Assembly (NCBI GenBank): GCA_963798675.1
Contig: CAWCUJ010000046.1
Location: forward strand, 55,390-119,389
Direction of reading: 5' to 3'
Origin: an uncultured Actinomycetes bacterium
GTDB lineage: Bacteria > Actinomycetota > Actinomycetes > Streptosporangiales > Streptosporangiaceae
DNA: 64,000 nucleotides
The position numbers and the translations under genes were made by a program. The notes beneath the pieces are model-generated. The model searched no databases. It worked only from the letters and a program-made list of their open reading frames with translations, and was not told where the DNA came from. Positions 13,242 to 40,000 of the stretch are shown piece after piece (within the stretch, counting starts at the first letter, position 1; every line of letters begins with the position of its first letter).

Positions 13242-13256
13242 GAACGATCTGCGGGA

Positions 13257-15167: not shown

Positions 15168-15209
15168 GGTCGCCGCGGTTAAAGCGGCAACCGGGGCCAT
15201 CCCCGGCAT

Positions 15210-15537: not shown

Positions 15538-15607
15538 TAGGAGGCGGCACGGTGCCACATCCATGCCGTCTCGCGCGGGGCCATCCCGGGCGGCGGCCGC
15601 CGGGGGT

Positions 15608-16932: not shown

Positions 16933-17052
16933 GATGACCTCTGCTGGGTGACGATGCCGAACCGGATGGCGGGTCCCGCTAATCTACCGAGCTTACCGCC
17001 AGCCTGATAACGGGCTATTCGGCTCCGCGGGTTCGGTGATACTCAAAAGACC

Positions 17053-17890: not shown

Positions 17891-18643
17891 ATGACGGTGC
17901 TCGCCCGGCTCTGGGACAGGGTGTCGGGCAGCCAGCCGCTGCCGCCGGCCTGGGTGATCGGCCTGACCGGGCTGCTGGCCATTGTCGTCGTGCTTGACGC
18001 GCGATCCTGGCGGCTGGCCGGGAAGGTCATCACGATCGCGCACGAGGGCGGCCACGCGCTGGTCTCCGTGCTGTCCGGGCGGCGGCTTGACGGCATCAGG
18101 CTGCACGCGGACAGCTCAGGGGTGACCTACTCCCGCGGCCCGTGGCGGGGCCCCGGCCTGGTGCTCACCGCGGCGGCCGGCTATGTCATGCCGTCGCTGC
18201 TTGGCGCGGGCGCCGCGGGGCTGCTGGCGGCGCGGCACCTGACCGCGATGCTCTGGCTCGCCCTGGTGCTGCTGGCCGCGACGTTCCTGGCCGTCCGCAA
18301 CCTGTACGGCGCGATCGCGGTGCTTGTCACCGCGGGCGCGGTGGTCGCGGTGAGCTACTACGCCACGGCCGTCGTGCAGGCCGGGTTCGCCTACCTGGCC
18401 GCGTGGTTCCTGCTGTTCGGCGGGGTGCGCCCGGTGCTCGAGCTGGCCAGGGGCTCTTTGGGTCGACGCCAGCGCTGGACGCGGGGCTCCGACGCCGACC
18501 AGCTGGCCCGGCTGACCGGCACCCCGGTCGGCCTGTGGATCACGCTGTTCGTGCTGGTGTCGGTGGCCGCCCTGATCATCGGGGCCGGGCTGCTGCTGCC
18601 GCCCGGCTGGCACCCTGGCATACACTCCGGTTTGCATTCCTGA
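17891..18643 (+). CDS. M50B-type membrane metallopeptidase-like protein
   Basis: ITIAHEGGHALVSVLSGRRLDGIRLHADSSGVT plus multiple TM spans. Confidence 0.8.
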   Translation: MTVLARLWDRVSGSQPLPPAWVIGLTGLLAIVVVLDARSWRLAGKVITIAHEGGHALVSVLSGRRLDGIRLHADSSGVTYSRGPWRGPGLVLTAAAGYVMPSLLGAGAAGLLAARHLTAMLWLALVLLAATFLAVRNLYGAIAVLVTAGAVVAVSYYATAVVQAGFAYLAAWFLLFGGVRPVLELARGSLGRRQRWTRGSDADQLARLTGTPVGLWITLFVLVSVAALIIGAGLLLPPGWHPGIHSGLHS

Positions 18644-18775
18644 CGCCGCCCTGGCCCGGCGGCCCCATCCTTAGTTCGCTGATATTTCGCACTTTTCCCG
18701 AATATCGTTGACCGTATACGCCGACGCGGTTATCATCTACCGATAGTACTGTTCTGACTCCTCGAGAAGGGTCAC

Positions 18776-19561
18776 ATGGCCAGGGCTTCCGCGGTCAGAA
18801 TGCCTCCGGAGGCGAATGCCGCGCACGGCTGCGAGGGCGCCCGCCGTGTCCTCGCCTTGCTGCTCACGTTCTCCGCCGACGACAACACGCTTACCGCCCG
18901 TCAGCTCGCCGAACGCACCGGCATCGCGCTGCCAAGCGTCTACCGCTATATCACGCTGCTGCGCGAGACCGGTTTGCTGGCCGGCGACGAACGCGGCAGC
19001 TACCGGCTCTCCGCCCGGCTCATCGGCCTGGCCCGGGCGGCGGAGTCCGCCGAGAGCATCATCGACGTGGCCAATCCGGTCATGCACGACCTGGCCGAAC
19101 AGACCGGGGAGACCGTCATCCTGGTCCGGCTGATCGGCCGGTCGGCGGTGTGCGTGCACCGGGTGCAATCCGCACAGCAGCTGCGCATCTCGTTCGAGGC
19201 GGGCCAGCCGCTCCCGCTCGAGCGCGGCGCAAGCGCCCGGCTGCTGCTGGCCAGCCTGGCGCCCAATGTCCGCAAGGAATACCTGGCCCCGCTGGCCGAA
19301 CGAGACCCGGAAGCCGCCGCCCTGCTCGAGAAGAAGATCCTCGTGGCCGGCCAGCAGGGCTTCGCCACCAGCGAGGAGGAGATCCACATGGGAGTCTGGG
19401 CGGCCTCGGCCCAGGTGAAGCACGGCAAGCGCGTGGCGGCCGTGCTCACCGTGCCGTCGCCGCTTGTCCGGGCGCCCGCCGAGCAGCGGGCGCAGTTGCT
19501 GAGTCGGGTCAGGTCCGCGGCCGACCAGATCGGCGAGGGACTGCGCGTGGCGCGGCGGTGA
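18776..19561 (+). CDS. IclR-family transcriptional regulator
   Basis: wHTH LTARQLAERTGIALPSVYRYITLLRETGLL plus an IclR effector domain. Confidence 0.85.
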   Translation: MARASAVRMPPEANAAHGCEGARRVLALLLTFSADDNTLTARQLAERTGIALPSVYRYITLLRETGLLAGDERGSYRLSARLIGLARAAESAESIIDVANPVMHDLAEQTGETVILVRLIGRSAVCVHRVQSAQQLRISFEAGQPLPLERGASARLLLASLAPNVRKEYLAPLAERDPEAAALLEKKILVAGQQGFATSEEEIHMGVWAASAQVKHGKRVAAVLTVPSPLVRAPAEQRAQLLSRVRSAADQIGEGLRVARR

Positions 19562-19625
19562 GTCCGCGGGCCCGTGCGGCCCGGTCCCCTTCGCTCGCCA
19601 TCGATCTCACCGCTATCCTTCCCGC

Positions 19626-21200
<1,575 letters not shown>

Positions 21201-21241
21201 CCTCATCCAGCCTGCCCCGGCCGCACGATAACCTGACGATC

Positions 21242-22600
<1,359 letters not shown>

Positions 22601-22758
22601 CCCGGCGCCCGCCGCGTCCGGACCACCGTCGACGCCCTCCTAGGCATCAGCCTGTAGCCCGGCGCCCTCCCGCTCCGGGTGCGTGCTCGGCCAGAGGCTG
22701 GGCGCTGCGGGTGCGCGGATCGGGCGTGGCTGGAGCCTCGTTGTCAAATCATCCCGGC

Positions 22759-22795
22759 CCGCCTGTGGATAACGATCGAAGTTATCCACAGGCGG
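22759..22795. promoter_or_regulatory. Perfect 15-bp-arm palindrome upstream of DUF4192 copy 1 (candidate operator)
   Basis: ccgcctgtggataac-gatcgaa-gttatccacaggcgg, about 45 nt upstream of the ATG at 22840. The same core occurs at 26640-26672. Confidence 0.6.
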
Positions 22796-22839
22796 CCGTT
22801 TGGCCAGACTCCGAACTTGCCGGACCGCACGCTGGCCAT

Positions 22840-24078
22840 ATGACCCAAACGCTTACCGCGGGTGACGACACCCCGCACGGTCCCAAGCCCTCGCACACTC
22901 CCCAGACGCCGGCCTTTCAGGCCCCGGCCGGCCCTCAGACTCCGGACGCCCTGCAGGCGGACCCCGTGCAGGTCCGGGCCGGATCGCCCGAGTCGCTGCT
23001 CGCGATCGTGCCGCACCTGCTCGGCTTCGTGCCGCAGGCCAGCCTGGTCGTGATCGGAATGGAGGCTCCCCACGATCGGATCAAGGTCACGCTCCGCTAC
23101 GACTTGCCCGACCCGCCCGGTGCGGGGGTCTCCGTGGACATCGCCGCGCACGCTGTCGGCGTCATCGGTTCGCAGCAGCTGGCCACGCTGGTGGCGGTCG
23201 GCTACGGTCCCGGATGCCTGGTCGACCCGGTGGCGGGCGCATTGGGCGCCGCGGCGCGGACGGCCGGGATCGACGTGCTGGACGTCCTGCGCGTCGAGGA
23301 CGGGCGCTACTGGTCCTACCTGTGCGCTGATGAGGACTGCTGCCCGGCGGCCGGGACGCCGTTCGATCCCGGCGCGCATTCCGCCGCGGCCGCCATGGCC
23401 AGCGCGGGGAACCGGGTGCTGGCCGACCGGGCTGCGGTGGCGGCCCGGGTCGCGCCGGTCGGCGGCATCGCCGCGGAGTCCATGCGCCAGGCCACCCGCC
23501 GCGCCCAACAGCACGCCCGCCAGCTGCTCGCGAAGGTCCGCAAGTCCGCGCGCATCGGCGCCGCGCGGCAGTTGATCGCCGCCGAGGGCCTGAACGCGGT
23601 GGGCGCCATGATCGCGACCTACCGCGCAGGCGGTAAGTACACCACGGACTACCAGATCGCGTGGATCACGGTGGCGCTGCGCGACCTGAGGGTCAGGGAC
23701 GACGCCTGGGCCCGGATGGACCCGGCGCACGCGGACGCGCACCGGCGGCTGTGGATCGACGTGACGCGGCGGGCGCAGCCCGGCTACGTGGCCCCTCCCG
23801 CAGCTTTGCTTGCCTTCGTGGCCTGGCAGTCCGGCGACGGAGCGCTCGCGAACGTCGCGCTCGACCGGGCCGCCGCCGACGAGCCGCGGTACTCGATGGC
23901 CCTGCTGCTCCGGCAGGTGATCAGCGCCGGGGCGCCTCCGTCGCTGGCCAGGCTGCCGATGACACCGGAGGAGGTGGCCGCCAGCTATGACGACGCCGAG
24001 GAGGACGACCCGGCGGGGAGCCATGACCACTACCCGGACCCAGACGTCCACGACCCGGAACCGGGGGGCGAACAATGA
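22840..24078 (+). CDS. DUF4192 domain protein (copy 1, intact)
   Basis: SPESLLAIVPHLLGFVPQASLVVIGM...YWSYLCADEDCCPAAGTPF...LRDLRVRDDAWARMD. The ORF-track start at 22279 is a Pro/Arg-rich artefactual extension. Confidence 0.85.
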   Translation: MTQTLTAGDDTPHGPKPSHTPQTPAFQAPAGPQTPDALQADPVQVRAGSPESLLAIVPHLLGFVPQASLVVIGMEAPHDRIKVTLRYDLPDPPGAGVSVDIAAHAVGVIGSQQLATLVAVGYGPGCLVDPVAGALGAAARTAGIDVLDVLRVEDGRYWSYLCADEDCCPAAGTPFDPGAHSAAAAMASAGNRVLADRAAVAARVAPVGGIAAESMRQATRRAQQHARQLLAKVRKSARIGAARQLIAAEGLNAVGAMIATYRAGGKYTTDYQIAWITVALRDLRVRDDAWARMDPAHADAHRRLWIDVTRRAQPGYVAPPAALLAFVAWQSGDGALANVALDRAAADEPRYSMALLLRQVISAGAPPSLARLPMTPEEVAASYDDAEEDDPAGSHDHYPDPDVHDPEPGGEQ

Positions 24079-24311
24079 GGTCAGGACGATGGCAAGGGAG
24101 GCCCCGGTTGGCAAGAATCGGGCGCGGGCGGCCTGACCCGCACATCAGGGATCTGATCGATGCTGGGTCACACTCTGGCGGTGTCGCGGCGCAGGCTCCA
24201 GACGGCGCCGGCCCGGCGCGGTCCTGCCGCCCTGGCAGCGCGGCACGCTCCGCGTCGTCCCGGGTTATCTGCATGGCACGGCCCGTCGGCCTCGCCAGCG
24301 ACCCGGGGTTC

Positions 24312-24440
24312 TTACCCATCCCGGCTGCTTTTGCCGCGCCACCACCATGGGCCAAACGAGCCCGTGCGCGCCTTGCGCCATGCGATGTTCCCGACCGCCA
24401 GGAGCACCACAACGATCACGATAATCAGCTCAATACTCAT
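24312..24440 (-). CDS. Possible 42-aa hydrophobic peptide
   Basis: MSIELIIVIVVVLLAVGNIAWRKARTGSFGPWWWRGKSSRDG. GGAGGT lies 8 nt upstream of the ATG. It is the inner part of ORF 24312..24722. Confidence 0.4.
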   Translation of the reverse strand: MSIELIIVIVVVLLAVGNIAWRKARTGSFGPWWWRGKSSRDG

Positions 24441-25620
24441 CCCGGTACCTCCTGGCGCGCAGAATTGCTCAGAAGAGGTGTCGGGTCCGTATGGGGCGAC
24501 AACCCGAAGTGGTCGTCCTGCCCAAACAAGGCGTCGCTCCCAAGGAGAGACTTCTCTCACGGTACCACGGAAGAGCATAGAAGTGGCCACTGCTAGCCAG
24601 AAGTGACTTTTGAGACCCGCGGCAAGGCCCGCTGCATCTTCGTCGGAGTGTCCATAGACAGTTAGAAATAAGTCAGCTTCTATTGAGTTGCGGCATGGCC
24701 TGACGTAGCGTGAGGGTGACACGATGGATATTCCCGTAGCCGTGTTGGTCTCTGCTTAAGGCAGCTTGAGCAGCGTCCGGGAGCGTTGCTCCGGACCCTG
24801 GTAGCGCTGGCGTAGCGGATTGACCCATGAGACGCCTGGTTCGGGCAGGACGGCCGCCCGCGGTCTGTCGCCCCGTACGGGCTCGACGCCTCCTCAGCTG
24901 ACGGCGAAATGCCGTGACCATTGGATTCGACGACATGCAGGTACCCGTTTGGGTGCTGGGAACCCGCAGGTGGCAGGCCCCGGCGCTCCAGCCTCGGATG
25001 CGGTACACCGGGGAACATTCCGGTTCGGCCTCGGGTGCCCGGGCTGGTATGTGGTCCCTTCGCCGGGGCGGCCGGCCGTTCGCAGGATACCCGGAATAAG
25101 CAGGAGGACCCGATGCGATTTCGAATCCTGATTGATGCGGGCAAACCTTCTTTCGGTCTCATTTTGGGTCCTGGTCTGGAATGGTGATGGGCCAAGGTGG
25201 GCAGGCAGGGCGAGCCGCGACGGCCTCGCGTTAATGCCGGGCAGCAGCGTGGGGCGCGAGCCGCATGACGAGAAACTGAGCCTGACACCTGCGAGGTGCT
25301 CGTTGCGGCTATTCTCGTCGCACTGACACTTCCGCCGTACCGAGGGCTGCCCGTGCCATGAGGCATGAGAATCCGGCGGCGGATTCCCGGCGGCAAAACC
25401 ACCAGGCATCCTTGTCTCTGTGACGGATTGGGCGTAGTGTAAAAAAACAGGAAGGTGTACCTGTCCATCCCGCATGCGGACGAATCGATATCCCTTTCGG
25501 CTGCTCTGGACCCCGGTAGCGCCTTTGGTGCGCAATTAAGCCAAGGGTGGCATCTGACCTTTTCCGTGCTCGCTGCCGGTCAGCGACGCACGGCTTGCGA
25601 GCAGGATACGGAGCGACGCG

Positions 25621-25788
25621 ATGGCGATGGACTTGCATGACACTTTGATGGGGTCCGTACTGGTGATCTCTGCCGGGCTGACGTTCGCATACACCAGAGC
25701 CGCTTCGAAAATTCTGCTCATCCTGACTCTTATCGGTGTTGCCGCCACGATCCTCATTGGTGTGCTGCTGTTCTTTCATCTTGCCTGA
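25621..25788 (+). CDS. Possible 55-aa two-TM peptide
   Basis: MAMDLHDTLMGSVLVISAGLTFAYTRAASKILLILTLIGVAATILIGVLLFFHLA. It falls below the ORF-track length cut-off. Confidence 0.35.
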   Translation: MAMDLHDTLMGSVLVISAGLTFAYTRAASKILLILTLIGVAATILIGVLLFFHLA

Positions 25789-26032
25789 GGCGCGCTGCAA
25801 TTGGGCTAGAGCCTGAGATCTGCCCAGTGGCGGTCACTGTTTCTGCCACGGCCGTTTCAAGATCGTTCTAAGGTCAGCCTTGGCCGTTCCCGGGCTGCCG
25901 TGTGTGAGGTTGTGTCGCGATCTGGTATCGGCTCGGCGGACCTGATCATGAAGTAAGGCGAAGCCCCTGCCGCCGTTACCGGTTCTCCTGCGTCACTGCA
26001 GTAGCGGACCCTGACCGGGTGGTCACCATGGT

Positions 26033-26521
26033 TCAGGCGGCAGGGGCCAGGAGGGCACCTCGGTCGACTCGCGACTCGTCGCGATTACCGTAGCGCTCGC
26101 GTAGCGCTCGCCAGGCGTCCAGCTTCTCCGGGCGCATCTGCTGCCCGTCATACAGGTCGTGCACGTAGCAGTAGAGGACCGTCTCCCCGCCCGGACCCAG
26201 GAACTGCACAGTCAGCGACTCCCGCCCGGCGAACGACGGGAACGGGTAGGGCTCGCGTACGAACCGGATCCCGGTGATCTCATCGACCCGCACGTCCATC
26301 GTCCAGCTGGCCGCGTCGTCGCCGAGCACGACGTGCCACCAGCGCCGGTCGGCTGGCCCGCGAAAGATTGGCGTGGCCGCGCCGGTCAGGTGCGCGGTCC
26401 ACCAGCCGATGCCGAAGACGAAGATTAGCTGCCCAGACTCTGACAGCTCCGCGATCAGGCGTTCTAGTTCGCTCTCGGGCTCACTGATACCTGCGATCTT
26501 GCCCATCGCTGCGCTCCTCAC
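26033..26521 (-). CDS. Hypothetical protein (weak ChuX/HutX-like impression)
   Basis: 162-aa ORF with normal GC3 bias. ITGIRFVREPYPFPSFAGRESLTVQFLGPGGETVLYCYV. No firm family assignment. Confidence 0.6.
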   Translation of the reverse strand: MRSAAMGKIAGISEPESELERLIAELSESGQLIFVFGIGWWTAHLTGAATPIFRGPADRRWWHVVLGDDAASWTMDVRVDEITGIRFVREPYPFPSFAGRESLTVQFLGPGGETVLYCYVHDLYDGQQMRPEKLDAWRALRERYGNRDESRVDRGALLAPAA

Positions 26522-26639
26522 CCGCGGCGGCGCCGTCGCTGCTTGTGAACACAGCGCCGCGCAATTTCGATACCCGATGGACCGCAGGTTCGCGGAGCCT
26601 GGGCACGGCTGACCCTTCCGCTTTCAAGGCCCGCCGCCA

Positions 26640-26672
26640 GCCTGTGGATAAACCAAAAAGTTATCCACAGGC
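26640..26672. promoter_or_regulatory. 12-bp-arm palindrome upstream of DUF4192 copy 2 (same core as 22759-22795)
   Basis: gcctgtggataa-accaaaaag-ttatccacaggc, about 48 nt upstream of the ATG at 26720. Confidence 0.6.
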
Positions 26673-26719
26673 GGTCCCGCGGGGCTCGTTCGCCAGCCCG
26701 CCCCGGCAACGCTGGCGTC

Positions 26720-27669
26720 ATGAGACAAACCGCCACCGCGGGTGACGACACCCCGCAGACACCCCAGGCACGCCAGAGGGCACAGAGGGCCCAGACCTTC
26801 CCGGACCCTGAGCCCGGCATCGCCGTCCGGGTCAGCTCGCCCGCCGCCCTGCTGGCCGTGATCCCGCACCTGATCGGCTTCTGGCCCGCGGCCAGCGTGG
26901 TCATCATCGGGCTCGCGCCGCCACGCGACCGCATCCGCGTCACGCTCCGGTACGACCTGCCCGATCCGCCCGACGCGGAACTGGCCGCCGACGTCGCCGA
27001 GCACGCCGCGGGCGTCCTGCACGCCCAGCACCTGACCGAAGCGACGGCGGTCGGCTACGGGACCGAGACCCTGGTGACCCCGGTGGCCGAGGCCCTCCGG
27101 GCTGCGGCCGCCAAGGCCCGGATCGACCTGCGGGACTTCCTCCGGGTCGAGAACGGCCGCTTCTGGTCGTACAACTGCCATGACCAGGAATGCTGCCCGG
27201 CCGAGGGGACGCCGTTCGACGTGACCCAGCGATCCGTGGTGTCCGTGCTGGACCGCGGCGGCGAGCCGGTGCTGGCCGACCGGACCGCCCTGGCCGCCCG
27301 GGTGGCGCCGCTGGGCGGCGTCACCGCCGAGTCGATGCGCCAGGCCACCCGGCGGGCCGAGCGGCACGTCGCCCAGCGGCTCGGGAAGGTCCGCACGTCC
27401 TCCCGCCTGGGCGCGGCCCGTCAGATGATCGCCGCCGAAAGCCTGGCCGCGGTCGGCGCGATGATCGCCAGGTACCGCCGCGGCGGCCGGTTCAGCACCG
27501 ATTACGAGATCGCCCGCATCACCGTCGCCCTGCGCGACCTGAGGGTCAGGGACGACGCCTGGGCCCGGATGGATCCCGCGCACGCCGAGCCGCACCTGCG
27601 GCTGTAGATCGACGTGATCCGGCGGGCCCAGCCCGGACACGTGGCCCCTCCCGCAGCTTTGCTTGCCTT
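26720..27669 (+). pseudogene. DUF4192 copy 2, 5' part (premature TAG, then interrupted by an insertion)
   Basis: Homologous to copy 1. The Trp codon of RLWIDV is TAG at 27605-27607. Homology continues to 27669 and then breaks. Confidence 0.8.
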
Positions 27670-27842
27670 AGCGAAGTGTTGATAGTCACAGGTGATGGAA
27701 CGAAGCAATGTCTCCAGCCTAGCTTGGCGCCGTTGAGTGACCGAACCGTAACCTTTCACTTCTATCCGAATCACCGTAATGGAGGCGATAGTGAACTCTG
27801 GAGGGTGCTTCACAGGGCATAGGGGTGGGAGGCTGAGGAGAC

Positions 27843-28628
27843 ATGGTCAAGAAGGCTGTCTTGGTGGTGGTCTTGTTGGTGCTGGCACTCGCCGTCGACG
27901 GCTGTAGTTCTTCAGGAACTACGCCAACTGGACTTCGGTGCACGAACCTCAAAACGGGTGTCGTTGTACAACAAAACTGGGGTTGTTACTACTTTATGAG
28001 TAACGGAACTTCGTTCCCCTGTCATATTGACGTAACTGTAATCAAGAAACAATACTGCACGAACACAAGCGGCGAATTTTACTTTTACTATGACGGTAAG
28101 ACCTATGCTTGTGCAACCCAGAACTGCGCCAATGGTGACACTGCGTCCGCCCCTGAATCCTGCTCGCCTAAGTACACCTATAATGATCTCGTAAACGAAG
28201 GCCAAGCGTGGCGGGTCATAAATCAGCAAGCGGACCAGAACACCACTTCAGGGCCAGTCACCATCGACTTGAGCTCCACAACGGCGACCACTGTATCCGA
28301 ATCCGCTAGTGTCGAACTTTCAGTAAATGCTGATGCTCTGCTAGACATTATTTTCGTAAGCGTTCACGCGCAGATAAATGCCTCGGTATCTAAGACGGCA
28401 AGCACGGTAGTCGGAAACGCAGTAAGGGTCACTATTCCGGCAGGTATGACCGCGAATGGAATTTACGGAGTTAGAGTCCAGGTCACTAAGGGTCATCTGT
28501 ACCAAAGCAACACTTGTGGCTCAGCTAAACCGGACTACGGCAACGTCATGACGTACGTACCTCTCTCCACTGGATGGTGCGTATGGCTAAGTGATCATAC
28601 GCCTTGCCAAGCCATTCCCGGAAATTGA
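27843..28628 (+). CDS. Secreted/lipoprotein-like Cys-rich protein with a beta-rich Ser/Thr C-terminal domain
   Basis: MVKKAVLVVVLLVLALAVDGCSS signal. Seven further Cys in the next ~95 residues. The C-terminal half contains the alternating hydrophobic/polar stretch SVELSVNADALLDIIFVSVHAQINASVSKTAS. Confidence 0.7.
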   Translation: MVKKAVLVVVLLVLALAVDGCSSSGTTPTGLRCTNLKTGVVVQQNWGCYYFMSNGTSFPCHIDVTVIKKQYCTNTSGEFYFYYDGKTYACATQNCANGDTASAPESCSPKYTYNDLVNEGQAWRVINQQADQNTTSGPVTIDLSSTTATTVSESASVELSVNADALLDIIFVSVHAQINASVSKTASTVVGNAVRVTIPAGMTANGIYGVRVQVTKGHLYQSNTCGSAKPDYGNVMTYVPLSTGWCVWLSDHTPCQAIPGN

Positions 28629-28732
28629 CGCGAGTTGCCCGATCGGCTTCAGGCCCGTGGCCCGCGTCGTCACCAGGCGGTCAAGGCCGTTTAGCGGAGT
28701 GTTGCTAGAGGTTGGTGACGACGCATGTCGGC

Positions 28733-29545
28733 CTAGACCGTCTGTGTTATAGCGATTGGATATCCAATAGTGCTGGGCGCGCGATCCAGATATCTATCTG
28801 GAAAAAACATTCTGATTCTGTAAACTACGTTTACCAATTTAGGCGGTCCGATGTGCAGATTCAGACGACTCAAGAGATCGAGCATGGAGATATGCTCGCC
28901 AGTATCGCCATGGTAACGATAAGCACCTGTATCGTCCCTTAGAGGATAACTGAGCTCGGCCATTGCCGCCAGCATTGTGAGCCCGCTTATCCTGCCCTCA
29001 ACTCTTCCATCTGCCGGATAGTTCTCAACCAGGTACAGAGGGGCGGGCTCCACTGCGGGCTCTTCGCACTCAGATAGCCACATGGTCATGTCGTCCTGCG
29101 CATAAGGCCTGCCTTGGGGATGTATTGTCATGGTTTGCAGGAAACATTCTTCTCTTCGAAAAGGAACGATTTGGTCAGCGCGGCGCTCCAGCCATTGCTG
29201 CTCCCTCTCCTTATGTCCCCTGCCGTCGCGTATTAGAGCTTCTTCCTGAAGATAATTGATAACCTTACTGTACTTATCTACTATCGAGGCATCGATCAGC
29301 TGAGTGCCGATTTGCACGCCGACCGAAGGCGGAATTCCTGCATTGAAGCTCAGAGTTGGGATAAACCGTCGTCGCCGACGTCCGGATATCTGCTCATAAT
29401 AACTATTGATTCGATTGACATCAAGGTATATGTAATCCACGAGTACCATTGAGAAATATATGTCCTTATCTAGATGGATTAGTTCTTGTATCGAGCGATT
29501 GAGAGCATCCTCTAGATCGTGACTTAGATAAACGCTCCTGCGCAA
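28733..29545 (-). CDS. Hypothetical cytoplasmic protein, no recognisable family
   Basis: 270-aa ORF (TTG start in the track; alternative ATG at codon 33). No signal peptide or TM span. Convergent with 27843..28628. Confidence 0.65.
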   Translation of the reverse strand: MRRSVYLSHDLEDALNRSIQELIHLDKDIYFSMVLVDYIYLDVNRINSYYEQISGRRRRRFIPTLSFNAGIPPSVGVQIGTQLIDASIVDKYSKVINYLQEEALIRDGRGHKEREQQWLERRADQIVPFRREECFLQTMTIHPQGRPYAQDDMTMWLSECEEPAVEPAPLYLVENYPADGRVEGRISGLTMLAAMAELSYPLRDDTGAYRYHGDTGEHISMLDLLSRLNLHIGPPKLVNVVYRIRMFFPDRYLDRAPSTIGYPIAITQTV

Positions 29546-29598
29546 GAGTCAGTCGGCACGCCCTCGACGGCTCGTCACCAGCTTGGCACCATCGATTG

Positions 29599-29859
29599 GT
29601 GGCCTGGCAGTCCGGCGACGGAGCGCTCGCGAACGTCGCGCTCGACCGGGCCGCCGCCGACGAGCCGCGGTACTCGATGGCCCTGCTGCTCCGGCAGGTG
29701 ATCAGCGCCGGGGCGCCTCCGTCGCTGGCCAGGCTGCCGATGACACCGGAGGAGGTGGCCGCCAGCTACGACGACGCCGAGGAGAACGACCTGGCGGGGA
29801 GCCATGACCACTACCTGGACCCAGATGTCCACGACCCGGAACCGGCGGGCGAACGATGA
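29599..29859 (+). pseudogene. DUF4192 copy 2, 3' part
   Basis: 7 mismatches over 261 nt against copy 1 (23818-24078). Corresponds to ORF 29596..29859. Confidence 0.8.
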
Positions 29860-29997
29860 GGTCAGGACGATGGCAAAGGGAGAGACCCCGGTTGGCAAGA
29901 TACACTGCCTGGGGCGTTCGTCCAGCTCAGTACGGATCTCGCTCGTTTGCCCGCCCCGGCCGTTTCCATGATGGGTGACAGCCGTTAAACCGGAAGG

Positions 29998-31446
29998 ATG
30001 CCCGTGGTGGATGCTCGCATGACTGCCGACGCGCATGAGGTCGAGGTGGCCCGGTTGCGTGAGGCCTACGCGGCCCTGCCCCCGGGGGCGCCGGTGCGGC
30101 TGGCCAAGCGCACCTCCAACCTGTTCAGGTTCCGTGACGCCGACCCAAAGACCCCGCAGAACCCAAAGATCCCGAAGAGCCCGCTGACTCCCGCGGAGAA
30201 AACCGCGCGGGCTGACCGGGGCCTGGACGTTTCCGCGTTCGGCCACGTGCTTTGCGTTGATCCCGCCACCAGGACGGCGCGGGTCGGAGGCATGACCACC
30301 TACGAGCACCTATGCGACGCGACGCTCAGGCATCAGCTGATGCCGCTCGTGGTGCCCCAGCTCAAGACGATCACTCTCGGCGGCGCGGTCACCGGGCTCG
30401 GCATCGAATCCACCGCGCTGCGCAGCGGGATGCCGCACGAGTCCGTCACCGAGATGGAGATCCTGACCGGCGACGGGCGCGTTATCCGCGCCACCGACGA
30501 CAACGAGCATGCCGACCTGTTCCGCGGCTTCCCGAACTCCTACGGGACGCTGGGCTACTCGCTGTCGCTCACCGTCGAGCTCGAGCCGGTCCAGCCGTTC
30601 GTGCATATTCGCCACTTCCCGTTCGGCACCGCGGCAGCCTGCATGGACGCGATCAGCCAGATCGCCGCGGACGGCAGCTTCCACGGCCACCGGGCGGATT
30701 TCGTCGACGGCACCGCGTTCGGCCCCGATGAGCTTTACCTCACCGTCGGGGCGTTCAGCGACGTGGCGCCGTGGCGCAGCGACTTCACCGGGCAGCAGAT
30801 CTACTACGAATCGGTCCGGCGGGATAAGGAGGACTTCCTGACCATCCGCGACTACCTGTGGCGCTGGGACACCGACTGGTTCTGGTGCTCGCGACCCTTC
30901 GGGGTACAGAAACCTCTGGTCAGAAAGATGTGGCCGCGTCGTTACCGACGCTCGGACGTCTACCGCAAACTGGTCGCCCTGGACCACCGGTATGGCCTCT
31001 TCGACTTCGTGAATGCGCGGCGGCACCTACCGCCACGGGAGAGGGTCATCCAGGACGTAGAGGTCCCGGTCGAACGTGGTGCCGAGTTCCTACGATTTTT
31101 CCAGGAAAAGGTGGGAATGAGTCCGGTGTGGATGTGCCCGCTGCGGCTGCGCGGCGAGCGGATCTGGCCTCTCTATCCCCTACGGCCCGGCGAGGTATAC
31201 GTGAACTTCGGGTTCTGGGGAACCGTGCCGCTGCCCGCGGGCCAGGCCGACGGCTACCACAACCGCCTCGTCGAGGACGAGGTCGCGAGGCTGGACGGGC
31301 ACAAATCGCTGTATTCCACGTCGTTCTACGCCGAGGACGAGTTCTACCGGAAATACAACGGCGAGGCCTACCGCGCGCTCAAGCGCGCCTACGACGGCGA
31401 GGGCCGCCTGCTCGGCCTGTATGAGAAATGCGTCAGGGGACGCTAA
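29998..31446 (+). CDS. bfaA: FAD-binding oxidoreductase, BfaA-like (10-methyl branched fatty acid synthesis)
   Basis: FAD_binding_4-type N-terminus (ITLGGAVTGLGIESTALRSGMPHE, YGTLGY). Immediately followed by a Cfa-family methyltransferase, as in the mycobacterial bfaAB pair. Confidence 0.6.
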   Translation: MPVVDARMTADAHEVEVARLREAYAALPPGAPVRLAKRTSNLFRFRDADPKTPQNPKIPKSPLTPAEKTARADRGLDVSAFGHVLCVDPATRTARVGGMTTYEHLCDATLRHQLMPLVVPQLKTITLGGAVTGLGIESTALRSGMPHESVTEMEILTGDGRVIRATDDNEHADLFRGFPNSYGTLGYSLSLTVELEPVQPFVHIRHFPFGTAAACMDAISQIAADGSFHGHRADFVDGTAFGPDELYLTVGAFSDVAPWRSDFTGQQIYYESVRRDKEDFLTIRDYLWRWDTDWFWCSRPFGVQKPLVRKMWPRRYRRSDVYRKLVALDHRYGLFDFVNARRHLPPRERVIQDVEVPVERGAEFLRFFQEKVGMSPVWMCPLRLRGERIWPLYPLRPGEVYVNFGFWGTVPLPAGQADGYHNRLVEDEVARLDGHKSLYSTSFYAEDEFYRKYNGEAYRALKRAYDGEGRLLGLYEKCVRGR

Positions 31447-31498
31447 GGCATCGGGACGGCAGGGCTGAGGTATCGGACGACAGGAAGGAAAGCGAAGG

Positions 31499-32776
31499 AT
31501 GGCTTTGGCGGAGGTCTTCGAGGCACTCGCGGGGCCTGAAGCCCCGGTGGAGTTCACGGCCTATGACGGCAGCCATGCCGGCGCGGCCGGATCTCCGGTG
31601 AAGATCACGGTCCGCTCGCCGGCGGCCGTGGCCTACCTGGCCCAGGCGCCGGGCGAGCTCGGCCTGGCCCGGGCCTACGTGGCCGGGCACCTGGACGTCG
31701 AAGGGGACATGTACGAGGCGCTGGCCAGGATGACCAAGGCCCAGTCAAGCAGCATGAGCATGGCGGAGAAAATGCGGCTGCTGCAGGCCCTCGGCGGCCC
31801 GAAGCTGCTGCTGCACCGAATGCCGCCCCCGCCGCAGGAAGTCACGCAGACGCGCCGCTGGCTGACCGGTCGGCTGCACTCCAAGAGCCGCGACGCGCGG
31901 GCGATCTCCCATCACTACGACGTCTCCAACCAGTTCTACGAGTGGGTGCTCGGGCCGTCAATGGCGTACACCTGCGCCTGTTATCCCGACCAGAAGGCGA
32001 CCCTGGAAGAGGCGCAGGCGTACAAGTTCGACCTGGTCGCCCGCAAGCTGGGGCTGGGCGAGGGCATGCGACTGCTCGACGTCGGCTGCGGCTGGGGCGG
32101 CATGGTGATGCACGCGGCGCGGGAGTACGGCGTCAAGGCCCTCGGGGTCACGCTGTCCGGCCAGCAGGCCGCCTGGGCCCAAGCGGCGATCGAGCGGGAG
32201 GGGCTGTCCGGACTCGCCGAGGTGCGGCACTTGGACTACCGCGACGTGCCTGAGACCGGCTTCGACGCGGTCAGCTCGATCGGGCTGACCGAGCATGTCG
32301 GCAAGGCGAACCTGCCGTCCTACTTCTCGTTCCTGTACCGGAAGCTGAAGGTTGGCGGACGGCTGCTGAATCACTGCATCACCCGGCCAGACAACATCGA
32401 GCCGCCCATCCGCAAGCGCGGGTTCATCAACCGGTACGTCTTCCCCGACGGCGAGCTTGAAGGGCCCGGCTACCTGATCTCGCTCATGCACGACACCGGC
32501 TTCGAGGTGCGGCACGAGGAGAACCTGCGCGAGCACTACGCCAAGACCCTGGCCGCCTGGGGCGCCAACCTGGACGCGCACTGGAGCGAGGCGGTCAAGG
32601 AGGTCGGCCAGGGCACCGCCAGGGTATGGCGGCTCTATATGGCCGGCTCTCGGCTGGGGTTCGTCCGCGACCACATCGAACTGCACCAGGTGCTGGGAGT
32701 GCGACTGGCTGCGGACGGGACGTCCGGCATGCCGTTGCGGCCCGACTGGGAGCTGCCCCGGGTGCTGGCCAGTTAA
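31499..32776 (+). CDS. bfaB: Cyclopropane-fatty-acyl-phospholipid synthase family SAM methyltransferase, BfaB-like
   Basis: HYDVSNQFYEWVLGPSMAYTCA, LLDVGCGWGG and SIGLTEHVG. Confidence 0.65.
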   Translation: MALAEVFEALAGPEAPVEFTAYDGSHAGAAGSPVKITVRSPAAVAYLAQAPGELGLARAYVAGHLDVEGDMYEALARMTKAQSSSMSMAEKMRLLQALGGPKLLLHRMPPPPQEVTQTRRWLTGRLHSKSRDARAISHHYDVSNQFYEWVLGPSMAYTCACYPDQKATLEEAQAYKFDLVARKLGLGEGMRLLDVGCGWGGMVMHAAREYGVKALGVTLSGQQAAWAQAAIEREGLSGLAEVRHLDYRDVPETGFDAVSSIGLTEHVGKANLPSYFSFLYRKLKVGGRLLNHCITRPDNIEPPIRKRGFINRYVFPDGELEGPGYLISLMHDTGFEVRHEENLREHYAKTLAAWGANLDAHWSEAVKEVGQGTARVWRLYMAGSRLGFVRDHIELHQVLGVRLAADGTSGMPLRPDWELPRVLAS

Positions 32777-35385
32777 TTGGCCGAACGGACCGTAGTTCTC
32801 CCGCCCGCGCCGCTACCAGCCTGGCTGACGGCCGGTCCGGCCGGCCCGGGCGGCTCTGCGGCCCGCATCCGCGGAACAGCGCAGCTGGCCAGCGTGCCCC
32901 CGGTCACCGCAGACCCGGCCGGAGCCAGGAACGGCGTCAGGTCGGCGATGGCCCCCGCCGTGAACAGCGCGGCGATGGCCTTGGCCAGTGCCCAGTCGGC
33001 CTGGACCCCGCCGTCGCCCGGCAGCGTCGTCGGCATAGCGACGGCCGGTACGCCGCCGCATTCGGCGGCCTTAGCGGTCAGCCCGGCCGCCGGCCCGGCG
33101 GTCACGATCAGGTCGGCCAGCTCGGCTGCCTGCGCCATCGCCTGGGCGAACAGCACCGGGCGGCTCATCTGGCCGGCCAGCATCCGGGCGATGTCTTCCT
33201 GCGGCGTAACCAGGTGGCCGGTGATGGTGGAGAACAGCCGCCGCCGCGGCGGCGCGAAACTCGTGCCCGCGAAGACGCACCGCAGCGGGGCGGCGCACCT
33301 CGCCATGGCCGGGGAGTGCATCGGGCTCGTGCCGTCGAGCACCTCGACGGGGACGCCGAGCACCCCGGCCCGCCTGGCCATGTCCCGGATGCCGGCCGTG
33401 GATCCCGCCAGCACGTGCGTCCGGGGTCCCTCGTAGGCGGAGAGGTACAGGCGGCCAGGTGCGCCAAGCGCGCCGGCCATCTCGGCGTCGGCCGTGACGC
33501 GGGCCATCGCGGCCGGCCCGCGGGCGCAGGCCTGCAAGACCTGGCCGCACTGCGCCAGCAGGCGCGCCCCTTCGGCCGAAGATATGCTGCCGGCCCAAGT
33601 GAGCCCGGTGATCTCGGCCAGGCCGTAGCCGACCCCGGCGATCGGCCGGACGCCGAGCATGTCCAGGGTGCCCAGGGCCTGGAGCGAGGCGGCGAACAGC
33701 GCCGGCTGGCCGGCCGCCGATTCGGCGCGCCCGGGAAAGAGCACTACGACCGCGCCGGTCGCGTCGGCCGACATGCGCACGTCCGGCGGCCCGGCGTTGG
33801 CGGCGGCCGGGCCGCTCGTCCTCAGCCGCCAAGCTGCGCACTGAGCGCGGGCGGCCAGCTGGCGCGGGGTGGCCGCAGTCAGGGCGACCCGCAGCGGCGC
33901 CGGGTGATCGCAGGCCTGGACCGCGCCGCTGGCCAACTGGCGGGCGAGCCCGTCAAGTCCGGCGTCCGAGAGCACGGCGGCGCTGGCGGCGATGACGTCG
34001 AGCTGACTAGCCAGCGCGCCAGGATCCCCGCCGCGCAGCGCGAAGACGCGGAGATGCTCCGAGGTATCCACCGCGGCCGGCCTGCGCGGCGCCGTGTGTC
34101 TTCCCGGTACCGGGGGTTCCTGGACGTCGGCCTGATCGGCCCGGCGGCGCCGGCAGGCCCAGCGGTCGGCCTCGCCCTCGCGGCGCAGCACGAGATGGAT
34201 TCCCTCGGCGTCGCGCGGGCCGGAATGCCCAGGCAGCACCGCAGGGTCAGCCATGCCGAGCGAGTTCACCGCGGCGAACCGAGACGGGCGGGCGCGGGTT
34301 CCCGAGCTTTCGTCGGGCCAGGGTTCCGGCCGCGCAGGCAGCCGGAGCAGCCCGTCACCCGATGCGATGAGCGGATGCGGCCGGGTGCAGCCAGGGCCCG
34401 GCGGGATCGTCCCCGTAGCCATCGCCACGGCCGTCTTGACCAGGCTCGCGATGCCTGCCGCCGCCCGGGTGTAACCGATGCCGGCCGAGGCCGCGCCGAG
34501 CGCCGCGACGCCCCGGCCGCCCCGCCTGAGCTGCGTAAGCGCGGTCAGCTCGGCCGAGTCCGCCGCGGCGGTACCGGTGCCCTGGCCCTCGATGAGCTGG
34601 ATGTCCGCCGGATCCACCTCGGCTCGCTGGTAGGCCCGCAGCAGCGCGGGGCCGGCCAGTTCGGGTGCCGAAACGGGCACTACGCTCCAGCCCGTGATCT
34701 CTGCATAGACCGGAACATCCGCTGCCCGGGCGTCTGCGGTGCGGACCAGCACCACCATGCCGCAGCCCTCCCCGGGCAGCAGCCCGGCCGGGTCGGCCGC
34801 GTAGACGCGCATCTCATCGGTGCCCAGCGTGCCTGCCCGGGCCTGCAGCGCTAGCCAGATCGGGTCCAAGCCGAGTTCGGCCCCGCCGGCGACCGCGAGG
34901 TCAAGGTCGCCGGCCTGAAGCGCGGCGGCGGCGGCCGTCACCGCGTGCAGCGAGGACGCCAGCGCCGCGCCCGGGTACGGCCCGCGCGGACCGAATCCGA
35001 ACTCCTCGCGGACCAGCTCGCACACACCCGGCGCGGTGCTCGCGATGATCAGCCCGGTCCGGCTGGTCCCGGCCGCCTCGCGCAGCCCCGCGTCGGTCAG
35101 GGCGAGGGCGGTCATCTCGGCCGCCAGCTTCTGTACCGGGCCTAGGTCCTGCGGCCCGAGCTCGAGCTCACCGAACAGATGGTCATCCGCCGGTACCTGC
35201 GGGACCGTCCAGTCGTCAAGCAGCGCCGCCCGCAGCGGCCGGCCCGGCAGGCCGGCCGCGGGCTGGAACATGCGCCGCCCGGCCACGGCCAGCTCGTGGT
35301 ATTCCGCGGGATCCCGGGCGCCGGGGAACCGGCAGGCCACGCCGATAATCGCCACGGACCCGCCGTGATCCCCCCGACCGCCCAT
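32773..35385 (-). CDS. Type I PKS-like KS-AT didomain protein with all catalytic residues substituted
   Basis: KS N-terminus VAIIGVACRFPGA. GAALASSL replaces DTACSSSL, EGQGTGT replaces EAHGTGT, and IGYTRAAAG replaces IGHTxAAAG. In the AT domain, GVGYGLAE replaces GHSxGE. Confidence 0.8.
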   Translation of the reverse strand: MGGRGDHGGSVAIIGVACRFPGARDPAEYHELAVAGRRMFQPAAGLPGRPLRAALLDDWTVPQVPADDHLFGELELGPQDLGPVQKLAAEMTALALTDAGLREAAGTSRTGLIIASTAPGVCELVREEFGFGPRGPYPGAALASSLHAVTAAAAALQAGDLDLAVAGGAELGLDPIWLALQARAGTLGTDEMRVYAADPAGLLPGEGCGMVVLVRTADARAADVPVYAEITGWSVVPVSAPELAGPALLRAYQRAEVDPADIQLIEGQGTGTAAADSAELTALTQLRRGGRGVAALGAASAGIGYTRAAAGIASLVKTAVAMATGTIPPGPGCTRPHPLIASGDGLLRLPARPEPWPDESSGTRARPSRFAAVNSLGMADPAVLPGHSGPRDAEGIHLVLRREGEADRWACRRRRADQADVQEPPVPGRHTAPRRPAAVDTSEHLRVFALRGGDPGALASQLDVIAASAAVLSDAGLDGLARQLASGAVQACDHPAPLRVALTAATPRQLAARAQCAAWRLRTSGPAAANAGPPDVRMSADATGAVVVLFPGRAESAAGQPALFAASLQALGTLDMLGVRPIAGVGYGLAEITGLTWAGSISSAEGARLLAQCGQVLQACARGPAAMARVTADAEMAGALGAPGRLYLSAYEGPRTHVLAGSTAGIRDMARRAGVLGVPVEVLDGTSPMHSPAMARCAAPLRCVFAGTSFAPPRRRLFSTITGHLVTPQEDIARMLAGQMSRPVLFAQAMAQAAELADLIVTAGPAAGLTAKAAECGGVPAVAMPTTLPGDGGVQADWALAKAIAALFTAGAIADLTPFLAPAGSAVTGGTLASCAVPRMRAAEPPGPAGPAVSQAGSGAGGRTTVRSAN

Positions 35386-38533: not shown

Positions 38534-39430
38534 TCAGACGCGGCGGAGCACGGCGACGACGCGGCCGAGGATGCTGGCCTCGTCGCCGAGGATCGGCGTG
38601 TAGGCCGGGTTGTGCGGAATCAGCCAGACGTGCCCGTCGCTCTGCTTGAACGTCTTTACCGTCGCCTCGCCGTCCAGCATGGCCGCCACGATCTCGCCGT
38701 TCTCCGCGACCGGCTGCTCCCGGACCACCACCCAGTCCCCGTCGGCGATGGCGGCGTTGATCATCGAATCGCCGGCCACCTTCAGCAGGAACAGCGTGCC
38801 CTCGCCGACCAGCTGCCTGGGCAGCGGGAACACGTCTTCGATCGCCTGCTCGGCTAGGATCGGGCCGCCCGCCGCGATCCGCCCGACCAGCGGCACGTAG
38901 GCCGCCTCCTGCGACGGGATGTCGATGCCGGGGATGTCGCCGGCCTCTTCCTCCTCCCGGCTGGCCTCCCGGCCCGGCGCCGGCCGCACCGCCGGGTGAC
39001 CAGGCAGCCGCACCTCGACCGTCCGCGGCCGGCCCACGTCCCGGTGCAGGTATCCCTTGCGCTGCAGCGTGCTGAGCTGGTACGAGACGCTTGACGTGCT
39101 GGTCAGGCCGACAGCCTCGCCGATCTCGCGCATCGACGGCGGGTAGCCGCGCTTCTGCACCGACTCGCGGATGACCTGGAGCACCTTGCGCTGCCGCCAG
39201 GTCAGCACGTGGTCGGGGTCGGGCTTGTCCGGGGTCTCCGGGATGACGACCGGCACGCTGCCCTTCGGCTTGCGCCCTGGCCGCCCCTTAGGTCTGGGCG
39301 CCTCCGTTGGATCTGTGCCGGAAGCACCGGTTGCGGCGCCTCCCATGGCGGTTTCCTCCATCTGATGACCTTCCGTGTCCGAGTTCTTGCGTGCTGAGTA
39401 GAGAGTAACGGTTCTCGCCCGAGATCCCAA
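38534..39430 (-). CDS. lexA: LexA repressor (chromosomal copy)
   Basis: w[27 protein letters not shown]. Cleavage site [10 protein letters not shown]24 catalytic GDSM and TVKTFK. The likely real start is the internal MEETAMGG (about 39361). Confidence 0.9.
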
Positions 39431-39442
39431 ACATCTGTTCGA
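39427..39442. promoter_or_regulatory. SOS (Cheo) box-like site
   Basis: CCAAACATCTGTTCGA versus TCGAAC-N4-GTTCGA. The right half is perfect; the left half matches 4/6. Confidence 0.5.
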
Positions 39443-39544
39443 CGTGTCGCAAAAATGTCAGACCCCCGACGTACAACAGCTACGTACCCCATTCGATCGA
39501 ACAGTAATACGATCGAATGGGTGTACGATCGAACGCATCACGGC

Positions 39545-39560
39545 TCGAACGAAGGTTTGA
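39545..39560. promoter_or_regulatory. SOS (Cheo) box
   Basis: TCGAACGAAGGTTTGA matches the consensus at 11/12, just upstream of the LysM gene RBS. A weaker site, TCGAACAGTAATACGA, lies at 39497-39512. Confidence 0.65.
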
Positions 39561-39574
39561 TCAGGAGGTCCGCC

Positions 39575-40000
39575 ATGGATGCGATGCCAGCAGTGACGCG
39601 GCCCTGTGGTTCCGGGATCCGCCCACGTCACGGCGGTGCGGTGTACCTGGCGCCCCGCCCGCGTCGCGACCCGGCCCGCAGTGGCGCGCCGGATGCCGCG
39701 CTGCGGCTGACCAGGCGGGGCCGAGTGGTGGTCGCGGCTGTCGCCGCGCTGCTTGTGACCCTGGTGTCGCTGCTCGCGGCCGGCGCGGCGCAGGCTACGA
39801 ATCACGCCCTGCCGCCGGGCGTGGCGCGGCAGAACCTCGTCCAGGTGGTCGTCCGCCCGGGTCAGAGCCTGTGGTCGGTGGCCGAGAGCGCGGATCCGGA
39901 CCAGGACACCCGCGCCGTTATCCAGCAGATCGTCGATCTCAACGCGCTGAGCGGCGACCTCGTGTCCGCCGGCCAGCAGCTCTGGGTCCCGCGCGGCTAA
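39575..40000 (+). CDS. LysM-domain protein divergent from lexA (ChiZ/Rv2719c-like position)
   Basis: AGGAGG RBS, one TM span, and a C-terminal LysM domain (VVVRPGQSLWSVAESA...IVDLNALSGDLVSAGQQLWVP). Confidence 0.75.
   Translation: MDAMPAVTRPCGSGIRPRHGGAVYLAPRPRRDPARSGAPDAALRLTRRGRVVVAAVAALLVTLVSLLAAGAAQATNHALPPGVARQNLVQVVVRPGQSLWSVAESADPDQDTRAVIQQIVDLNALSGDLVSAGQQLWVPRG

Follow-up and report, generated by a model that had tools for sequence, protein, structure and literature searches.

The window, as we call the whole 64-kb (64,000-nt) stretch of DNA analyzed here, is part of contig CAWCUJ010000046.1 from an uncultured actinomycete and carries two copies of a gene of the DUF4192 family, the second of which is interrupted by a 1929-bp insert (27670-29598) that may well consist of two mobile single-gene cassettes. 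Base composition revealed a marked GC deficit in this insert, with 51.1% GC against a mean of 69.1% (standard deviation 3.3, minimum 61.2) for the other 1929-bp windows of the 64-kb sequence, or about 5.5 standard deviations below that mean. Two intact convergent open reading frames (ORFs) lie within it, ORF1 at 27843-28628 (+) and ORF2 at 28733-29545 (-), and their GC content at third codon positions (GC3) is 0.53 and 0.52, respectively, versus 0.87-0.92 in the three native genes measured. There is also an inverted repeat (GTCGTCACCA/TGGTGACGAC) at 28666-28675 and 28713-28722, and a direct repeat (AGCTTGGCRCCRT) at 27721 and 29580. At the junction, DUF4192 copy 1 reads GCCTT-C-GTGGCC, and copy 2 reads GCCTT, the 1929 bp and then GTGGCC, with one C gone. 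An earlier note on this DNA had described a low-GC, foreign-looking segment set cleanly into a DUF4192 copy and holding two convergent ORFs and both repeats, and all of this is borne out, each element lying where it had been placed, apart from the one lost C.

The absence of a mobility gene from the insert, also claimed there, held in our scan of the surrounding island, which covered four ORFs (ORF1, ORF2, the ORF at 26033-26521 and the 5' part of DUF4192 copy 2) and, just beyond the island, the 3' fragment of copy 2 (29596-29859), and revealed no transposase or integrase domain in any of them. Rfam gave no match within 24000-29900, consensus scanning turned up no terminator-like site, with promoter-like sites not in excess (3 versus 1.7 expected), and the hairpin between ORF1 and ORF2 is of ordinary stability (z = -1.8). 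Different sequencing runs yielded 8 Logan contigs in which the insert and both of its junctions are identical, and an ENA contig that is near-identical to the window (L110; we denote the loci fetched for comparison by L numbers) has the entire arrangement as well. These contigs, which carry the ORF1 and ORF2 pair, are from the same organism as the window, and we therefore take the insertion to be fixed in the source organism.

An imperfectly palindromic site of about 60 nt, centered on TT, is repeated at the left junction, between the two genes and at the right junction, so the earlier view that the insert has no terminal structure must be abandoned. Writing B and B' for the DUF4192 halves, P for the part of the site before TT and P' for the part after it, the layout is B-TT-P', ORF1, P-TT-P', ORF2 (inverted), P-TT-B'. 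The left site (27640..27710, +) has its TT at 27668-27669 and its P' half, AGCGAAGTGTTGATAGTCACAGGTGATGG, from 27670. Cassette 1 (27670..28692, +) comprises a conserved 170-nt leader, ORF1 and a 64-nt tail that ends in a P half. The middle site (28664..28727, +; TT at 28691-28692) is a complete imperfect palindrome, whose outer arms are the 10-bp inverted repeat already seen in the earlier note. Cassette 2 (28693..29597, -) holds ORF2, and the right site (29566..29630, +) reads GCTCGTCACCAGCTTGGCACCATCGA TT G GTGGCCTGGCAGTCCGGCGACGG, with GTGGCC directly after that G.

Searching the 64-kb window with a P' profile that was built solely from other genomes' sequences revealed two significant matches, at 27666-27710 (E-value, E, of 1.2e-6) and 28691-28727 (E 0.006), with all remaining matches at E > 5. 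Alignment with other loci gave the same boundaries: the insert start, AGCGAAGTGTTGATAGTCACAGGTGATGG, is homologous to DNA about 130-230 nt 5' of ORF1 in L010 and L015, the 64 nt 3' of the ORF1 stop are 92% identical to L010 as far as the TTT at 28690-28692, and the homology between window and L010 around ORF1 spans TT to TT. The DNA 3' of that TTT, AGCGGAGTGTTGCTAGAGGTTGGTGACGAC, repeats the left-end sequence. The right and middle sites have a 10-mer, TCGTCACCAG, in common at a nearly equal offset from TT, and the second AGCTTGGC repeat (29580) falls in the right site's P half. B' in reverse complement is weakly like P (E about 0.7), and half-site symmetry is otherwise poor, apart from the 10-bp arms of the middle site.

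Two stretches of the ORF1 cassette were observed alongside these sites. A conserved block in the leader, CCAGCCTAGCTTGGCGCCGTTGAGTG (27712-27740), includes the first AGCTTGGC repeat, is common to L010 and resembles the P half of the right site, and it could be a relic site or a regulatory element. In the tail, 38 nt (28638-28675) are 84-88% identical to the DUF4192 5' region at E about 0.025, with counterparts at 26872-26903 in the window and 10150-10187 in L055; this stretch is also conserved in the L010 cassette tail.

The spot inside DUF4192 receives foreign DNA in other soil actinomycetes as well. The site recurs in other genomes, as revealed by a wider search with a profile seeded from seven copies, among them two L015 sites, L092 and L068, and with non-seed matches in L107, L069, L083, L048 and L054. 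Across an alignment of 14 sites the central TT is invariant, and in all 14 the boundary falls between TT and RGCG. Some of these sites bound ORF1-type cassettes, as in L010, in L015, where one lies on either side of the ORF1 homologue (both were model seeds), and in L107, where three sites lie between a Zn-ribbon/transmembrane gene, an ORF1-like gene and a further low-GC unit. Others carry the P' half at the same DUF4192 codon as in the window, namely in L054 (non-seed) and in L092 and L068 (both model seeds). Yet another set (L069, L083 and L048) gave one match each, directly abutting a second, displaced DUF4192 3' fragment, whose first residue is the junction residue and which lies 2-6.6 kb downstream of a complete DUF4192. 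In these three and in the window, direct repeats of the DUF4192 3' part start exactly at TT, and the right repeat copy is always preceded by a P-type half-site with differing cargo: a beta-propeller protein, a TIR-NB-ARC protein and a resolvase fragment in L083 (whose direct repeat is 285 bp and 99% identical), a TetR regulator and a glycosyltransferase in L048, and a GH2 glucosaminidase in L069.

Several of these loci hold more than the match itself. L107 (1-2356), a metagenome contig of 2.4 kb and 56% GC, looks like a pure cassette array in the order site, 172-aa CxxC Zn-ribbon protein with a C-terminal hydrophobic stretch, site, ORF1-like lipoprotein without the Cys-rich N-terminal domain, site, low-GC unit. 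The island at the DUF4192 site in L083 spans 11057-16975, and its beta-propeller protein measures 695 aa. A truncation of DUF4192 in L068 and L092 was considered and rejected, as both ORFs read on (410 and 419 aa); both loci carry P'-type sequence from TT and are at most putative insertions. L092 and L035 belong to one contig (CAVUNL010000020.1) of a metagenome-assembled genome (MAG), on which mshC is separated from the orthologous DUF4192 by about 9 kb and a second DUF4192, and this second DUF4192 has P'-type sequence from TT and then about 16 kb more. Viral contigs searched for the site, ORF1 and DUF4192 yielded no site, no ORF1 and one intact DUF4192 without the site.

Turning to the cargo, ORF1 (27843-28628, +) encodes a predicted 261-aa Cys-rich lipoprotein with about 36 homologues at 42-73% identity, one of them from a named organism, Trebonia sp., and the homologue loci examined are high-GC, actinomycete-like contigs. 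Besides a signal peptide, the family has a lipobox Cys (C21 in the window) and ten other Cys that never vary, all of them kept in the window protein. Judged from the alignment, a small residue (G, A or S) precedes the lipobox Cys in 21 of 21 aligned members. The ratio of nonsynonymous to synonymous substitution rates (dN/dS) against the nearest homologue is 0.27, and ORF1 is probably a secreted disulfide-rich lipoprotein under purifying selection. Its C-terminal half holds a conserved alternating polar/apolar stretch (SASVELSVNA...VSVHAQINASVS) with Ser/Thr runs on its flanks, a pattern that recalls the insertion hairpin in pore formers of the aerolysin type; searches of Pfam and of PDB sequences gave ORF1 no match in the aerolysin/ETX-MTX2 group, and a PDB sequence search with the ORF1-family profile found no relative. 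BLAST searches of plasmid and phage collections with ORF1, ORF2, a member of the ORF2 family and the 5.5-kb island were blank except for one partial ORF1 match on a Streptomyces megaplasmid. Elsewhere, ORF1 homologues form single-gene low-GC islets with sharp edges in varied accessory contexts, and in L015 the distance from the cassette to an IS110-family gene is about 6 kb. One homologue (L009, 1-1666), on a 2-Mb contig, sits among HTH/DUF6879/DUF5753 genes with cas4-cas1 and cas2 genes about 8 kb away, surroundings typical of accessory or defence genes.

For ORF2, the start is probably the ATG at 29449 because its homologues all align from residue 33, such that the gene would run 28733-29449 (-) and encode 238 aa, with the TTG at 29545 an unlikely start. 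An apparent orphan by word-indexed search, it then gave 52 distant relatives in a full HMMER scan, full-length and at 27-40% identity, and it keeps all of the family invariants (D10, R13, Y17, Q20, W124 and L140). One homologue, in Thalassotalea litorea, is the only gene of a chromosomal integron cassette with an attC site on either side, another is cargo of an integrase/Prim-Pol element, and a third adjoins a TIR gene in Nitrososphaera (L101). The nearest homologue (L112, AP022871.1, a 10-Mb chromosome) lies in a low-GC islet by HTH, NNH1/NACHT and 7-deazaguanine genes. ORF2 is predicted to be a soluble cytoplasmic stand-alone protein from an uncurated, patchily distributed family that appears to travel as mobile-element cargo. 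Two of these loci drew side observations. In L112 (6001-6900) the homologue seems frameshifted, with the family's C-terminal YRxR...GYPI motif in another frame past the annotated stop. L097 (2840-16066; Thalassotalea litorea VCBC01000019.1) is a sedentary chromosomal integron with an IntI-like gene and at least 15 small co-oriented ORFs, mostly attC-separated, of which the ORF2 homologue is one.

Neither ORF1 nor ORF2 fell in a curated family in Pfam, NCBIfam, PADLOC (E<=1) or PHROGs, in agreement with the earlier note, which could place neither protein. For ORF2, AlphaFold modeling improved from a mean predicted local distance difference test score (pLDDT) of 31 with the single sequence to 80 with the family alignment, at a predicted template modeling score (pTM) of 0.78; Foldseek of this model against PDB and BFVD gave a best E of 0.13 at a TM-score of about 0.25, and a PDB sequence search with the family profile gave one marginal match (E 0.069). 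PADLOC v2 matched 0 of 39 family members at E<=1. Weak recurrent matches were to phrog_9699 (15/39), DUF7019 (9/39) and DUF6414 (3/39), none at a curated threshold. DUF6414 is DolA of the Dodola system (bioRxiv 10.1101/2024.10.26.620412), and ORF2 has in common with DolA, DUF7019 and phrog_9699 an N-terminal motif of about 21 residues, LxEYLYVDxxRLxSYFEQIS. The likeness to DolA is N-terminal only, however (DUF6414 at 11.9 bits versus a cut-off of 25, over 21 residues), and, unlike Dodola, ORF2 has neither a ClpB-like DolB partner nor an ATPase neighbour. As a guess from context, ORF2 might have a stand-alone defence or addiction role, which we regard as a weak lead.

ORF1 and ORF2 are independent genes and not one system. 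No ORF2-family gene was present in 15 ORF1-homologue loci at profile E<=1, no ORF1-family neighbour in five ORF2-homologue loci, and neither family, by profile search, in 80 DUF4192 loci (one genome scanned per species, nearly all uncultured Streptosporangiales-type MAGs). The earlier note had proposed a self-contained two-gene module; our co-occurrence check found the two never together outside this organism, ORF1 homologues are single-gene islets, one ORF2 homologue is a single-gene integron cassette, and in the window the site separates the two. Of the toxin/immunity, exclusion or defence roles suggested for the pair, there is a weak lead for ORF2 only.

The DUF4192 gene that holds the insert was examined against its relatives. 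The closest loci (L041, L018, L017 and L020), with 81-93% DNA identity to the window, are colinear with window 18000-24116 and 29596-34000. They and other relatives have a single DUF4192, between mshC and a FAD-binding oxidoreductase gene, and window 24099-29595 has no counterpart in the related MAGs compared. The interrupted gene lies in a strain-specific island of about 5.5-5.8 kb, from about 23816/24099 to 29598, and the earlier claim of accessory, strain-specific DNA agrees with this. DUF4192 copy 1 (22840..24078, +) is complete and native-like, its DNA being 88-93% identical to orthologous loci, and has an intact B-TT-B' site with TT at 23814-23815. Its 3' part from 23815 is the left copy of a 284-bp direct repeat (23815..24098, +), which is 97% identical to 29596-29879 and begins exactly at TT. 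The right repeat copy (29596..29879, +; 284 bp) is the displaced native DUF4192 3' part and is contiguous with the syntenic downstream FAD-binding oxidoreductase gene (29998-31446). Between these, the promoter region and 5' part of DUF4192 copy 2 (26618..27669, +) form a pseudogene with a TAG at 27605-27607 that arose as TGG->TAG. In its 5' part, copy 2 shares 95.5% identity with the L055 DUF4192 and about 75% with copy 1; L055 is a different species, with flanks only about 80% identical to the window. Copy 2 is L055-like until about 27610-27645 and thereafter native-like up to TT. Pfam PF13830 (DUF4192) matches the copy-2 5' part at E 7.7e-54 (profile positions 1-257) and the 3' fragment at E 2.8e-12 (positions 280-320), and a PDB sequence search with the DUF4192 profile found no relative. 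The host had been taken for a core-type gene; it is instead a second, L055-like copy with a nonsense mutation, in a lineage whose relatives have one. By its sequence, the interrupted gene is a horizontally acquired, already dead duplicate, with the native copy 1 intact. With copy 1 native-like throughout, we rejected the idea that a simple Campbell integration, through one homologous crossover, accounts for the locus on its own, and for the origin of the 5.8-kb island both a circular DUF4192-bearing element integrating at TT and homologous recombination fit.

Other features of the island and its surroundings are smaller. Island segment A (24099..26617) is absent from all relatives and has 56-70% GC, with 24369-26004 likewise GC-poor in patches (56-65%). 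It holds an uncurated 157-aa ORF (26033-26506, -), for which the ORF at 26033-26521 gave no curated family above threshold in Pfam, NCBIfam, PADLOC or PHROGs, and two small hydrophobic ORFs, one of 42 aa (24312-24440, -) with a GGAGG ribosome-binding site and one of 55 aa (25621-25788, +). About 1.2 kb between them (24440-25620, 57-65% GC) contain no convincing ORF and no Rfam match. Further GC-poor patches of the window (<58% in 300-nt windows), at 1727-2257, 3906-4277, 13375-14309 and 39259-39656, contain no P' site by profile search. The mshC-like gene ends in a perfectly tandem 57-nt duplication (22545-22658, 96% identical) of its final codons and stop, which the near-identical contigs L110 and L111 share and which is the second duplicated gene 3' end within the window; the mshC-DUF4192 interval varies from 0.3 to 1.8 kb among other relatives. 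About 45-80 nt 5' of both DUF4192 copies lies a palindrome, CCTGTGGATAA-N-TTATCCACAGG, at 22757-22795 and 26636-26674. Each of its arms holds TTATCCACA, which we take to resemble a DnaA box. Arthrobacter plasmids, in which DUF4192 is a conserved gene, have been reported with DNA repeats 5' of DUF4192 (PMC10494377).

Considering the sites and their cargo, we put it at slightly better than an even chance that the block is two single-gene cassettes inserted by site-specific recombination or transposition supplied in trans. Each unit would be bounded by a TT-centered site, and the array would occupy a matching site in DUF4192 near codon 325 (GCC-TT-CGTGGCC). If circular or excised units had entered one recombination site in turn, with the recombinase or transposase acting in trans and no enzyme in cis, the observed layout would result, and such site-specific insertions would explain why the junctions are clean and why neither a long target duplication nor a mobility gene is present. 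The data establish the sites with their positions and their recurrence in other genomes, the missing island in relatives and the independence of the two genes. We infer that a site-specific recombinase or transposase made the joints, any class assigned to it being equally conjectural, and we favour site-specific recombination or transposition supplied in trans because of the fixed crossover point, the conserved half-site with unrelated cargo and the tandem units with complete sites.

Several observations weigh against this proposal. At the right junction, the P half is not significant by profile (E 3.1) and rests on the common 10-mer, and the base after TT is G where the target has C. No recombinase was found in the window island, and tblastn with a Bxb1 integrase query revealed no large-serine-recombinase homologue in the window or the other loci fetched, a weak negative. 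The Resolvase match in L083 is a 41-residue fragment (E 2.9e-5; 24.6 bits versus a Pfam cut-off of 23.3), and this serine-recombinase remnant beside a site is the sole lead to the enzyme. Sites were not detected beside the ORF1 homologues in L009, L011, L012, L102, L103 and L104, nor clearly beside the nearest ORF2 homologue (L112), and the sample comprises only about 14 sites, all in fragmentary MAGs or metagenome contigs. Lastly, P' resembles the DUF4192 sequence just 3' of TT, and the sites could be partly relics of DUF4192 flanks moved by homologous recombination.

This last point leads to the first alternative, a homologous-recombination shuttle in which cassettes move between DUF4192 genes (paralogues, plasmid copies or those of other species) through their flanks and the sites are decayed DUF4192 fragments, which we judge unlikely, if worth serious thought. 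The acquired 5' part of copy 2 (95.5% to L055), in which the allele changes 25-60 bp before the cassette's left end, speaks for such exchange, as do a P' that can be aligned with DUF4192 3' of TT and an L068 sequence intermediate between the two, the long direct repeats (120-285 bp) of the 3' part that flank the islands, the multiple DUF4192 copies of several genomes, and the conservation of DUF4192 as a plasmid gene in Arthrobacter (PMC10494377). A shuttle does not, however, account for repeats that begin at the same dinucleotide in four genomes, or for a non-DUF4192 P half-site (the reverse complement of P') that precedes the displaced 3' fragment despite unrelated cargo. L015 and L107 also have site-bounded cassettes but no detectable DUF4192 gene, and homologous recombination alone leaves the internal P-TT-P' between unrelated genes unexplained.

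Rather less probable is a non-autonomous transposon, either a mobile insertion cassette or a miniature inverted-repeat transposable element with cargo, that has subterminal inverted repeats TGGTGACGAC ... GTCGTCACCA, a transposase encoded elsewhere, a strong preference for the DUF4192 sequence and a duplicated TT target. TT indeed lies on both sides of every unit, the left end and the reverse complement of the right end have a 10-11-nt inner repeat in common, no recombinase is present in cis, and the L015 cassette has its IS110-family gene nearby (about 6 kb); against this, the two ends differ in their outer 17-20 nt, the 120-285-bp DUF4192 3'-part repeats of four genomes cannot stem from a 2-bp duplication, the right junction reads TT-G and not TT-C, and the analysis turned up no cognate transposase. 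A chance event in which illegitimate or end-joining repair captured a single foreign fragment within a dispensable pseudogene, with ORF1 and ORF2 as a functional pair (toxin/immunity, exclusion or defence), would suit the single base lost at the joint without a long duplication, the matching GC and GC3 of the two genes, their intactness with family-invariant residues kept, and the defence-type genes beside two ORF2 homologues (TIR in L101, NACHT/NNH1 in L112), but we consider it very improbable, as the joints fall on a site that other genomes have at this DUF4192 position too and that marks the ends of ORF1 cassettes elsewhere, the genes are convergent with a GC-rich site between them and never co-occur elsewhere, and neither family has a PADLOC match (the ORF2 family even at E<=1).

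Extending the proposal of site-bounded cassettes beyond this locus, one may tentatively suppose, at clearly less than even likelihood, that uncultured Streptosporangiales-type actinomycetes have an undescribed cassette-capture system that docks at the TT site in DUF4192 much as integron cassettes dock at attI. Low-GC single-gene cassettes, each with its own copy of the site, would then be inserted, stacked and exchanged by a trans-acting enzyme, and DUF4192 itself, conserved on actinobacterial conjugative plasmids, could belong to the machinery. If such site-bounded cassettes are real mobile units, they would represent a gene-capture route in the actinomycete phylum and would account for small AT-rich 'orphan' genes that lie cleanly inside high-GC genomes without a nearby mobility gene. 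The analysis also points to a genomic role for DUF4192, a conserved domain of unknown function, as a recurrent integration target. It defines two uncurated families, the Cys-rich lipoproteins and the 240-aa family (pTM 0.78) without a PDB or BFVD analogue, and the site offers a searchable DNA signature for further cassettes and for the recombinase.

Among known systems, integron cassettes offer an evident comparison: they too comprise about 1 kb with a single gene, are foreign in composition, lack a mobility gene, stand in tandem at one point and are each bounded by an imperfectly palindromic site of about 60 nt, and tandem single-gene units each with a site are seen in the window (two units) and in L107 (three sites, three units). 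Unlike integrons, however, the window locus has no IntI gene and no Phage_integrase match in the scanned island ORFs, and gene calls on the near-identical L110 revealed no integrase within 18-34.5 kb. The boundary falls between TT and RGCG rather than between G and TTRRRY (the true attC of L097 reads TAACAAG...GGCGTTAGG), the cassettes are not co-oriented, ORF1 has its own 170-nt leader, the insertion is inside a protein-coding gene, and the stability of the site hairpin is unremarkable (z = -1.8). To our knowledge, classical integrons are essentially unreported in actinomycetes. The pdif modules of Acinetobacter plasmids, which are moved by the host XerC/XerD, are likewise small recombinase-less gene modules with short palindromic sites and an enzyme presumably encoded elsewhere, but by inspection our sites bear no resemblance to the dif-type 11-6-11 arrangement and are direct, not alternating in orientation.

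The serine-integrase element phiRv1 integrates inside the repeated REP13E12 of M. tuberculosis, and the parallels with it include a site in a multi-copy protein-coding gene of actinomycetes, several alternative target copies per genome, no long target duplication and what may be imperfect inverted half-sites around a central dinucleotide. In contrast to phiRv1, the window island contains no integrase (a resolvase fragment being present in L083 only), the units are 1-kb single genes and not prophages, and tandem units with intact P-P' sites are not the usual product of a unidirectional attP x attB reaction. Islands at the 3' ends of genes such as tRNA or tmRNA genes, which bring a replacement 3' end with them, have on the large scale the same order of intact gene, island and displaced 3' fragment that is seen in the window, L083, L069 and L048, with a direct repeat that begins at a fixed point; here, unlike in those islands, the target is the protein-coding DUF4192, the repeats reach up to 285 bp and no integrase is retained. 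The DUF4192 arrangement thus resembles integron cassettes, pdif modules and serine-integrase targets in the way it appears to work but departs from each in defining features, and a DUF4192-embedded cassette site in actinomycetes appears to be undescribed.

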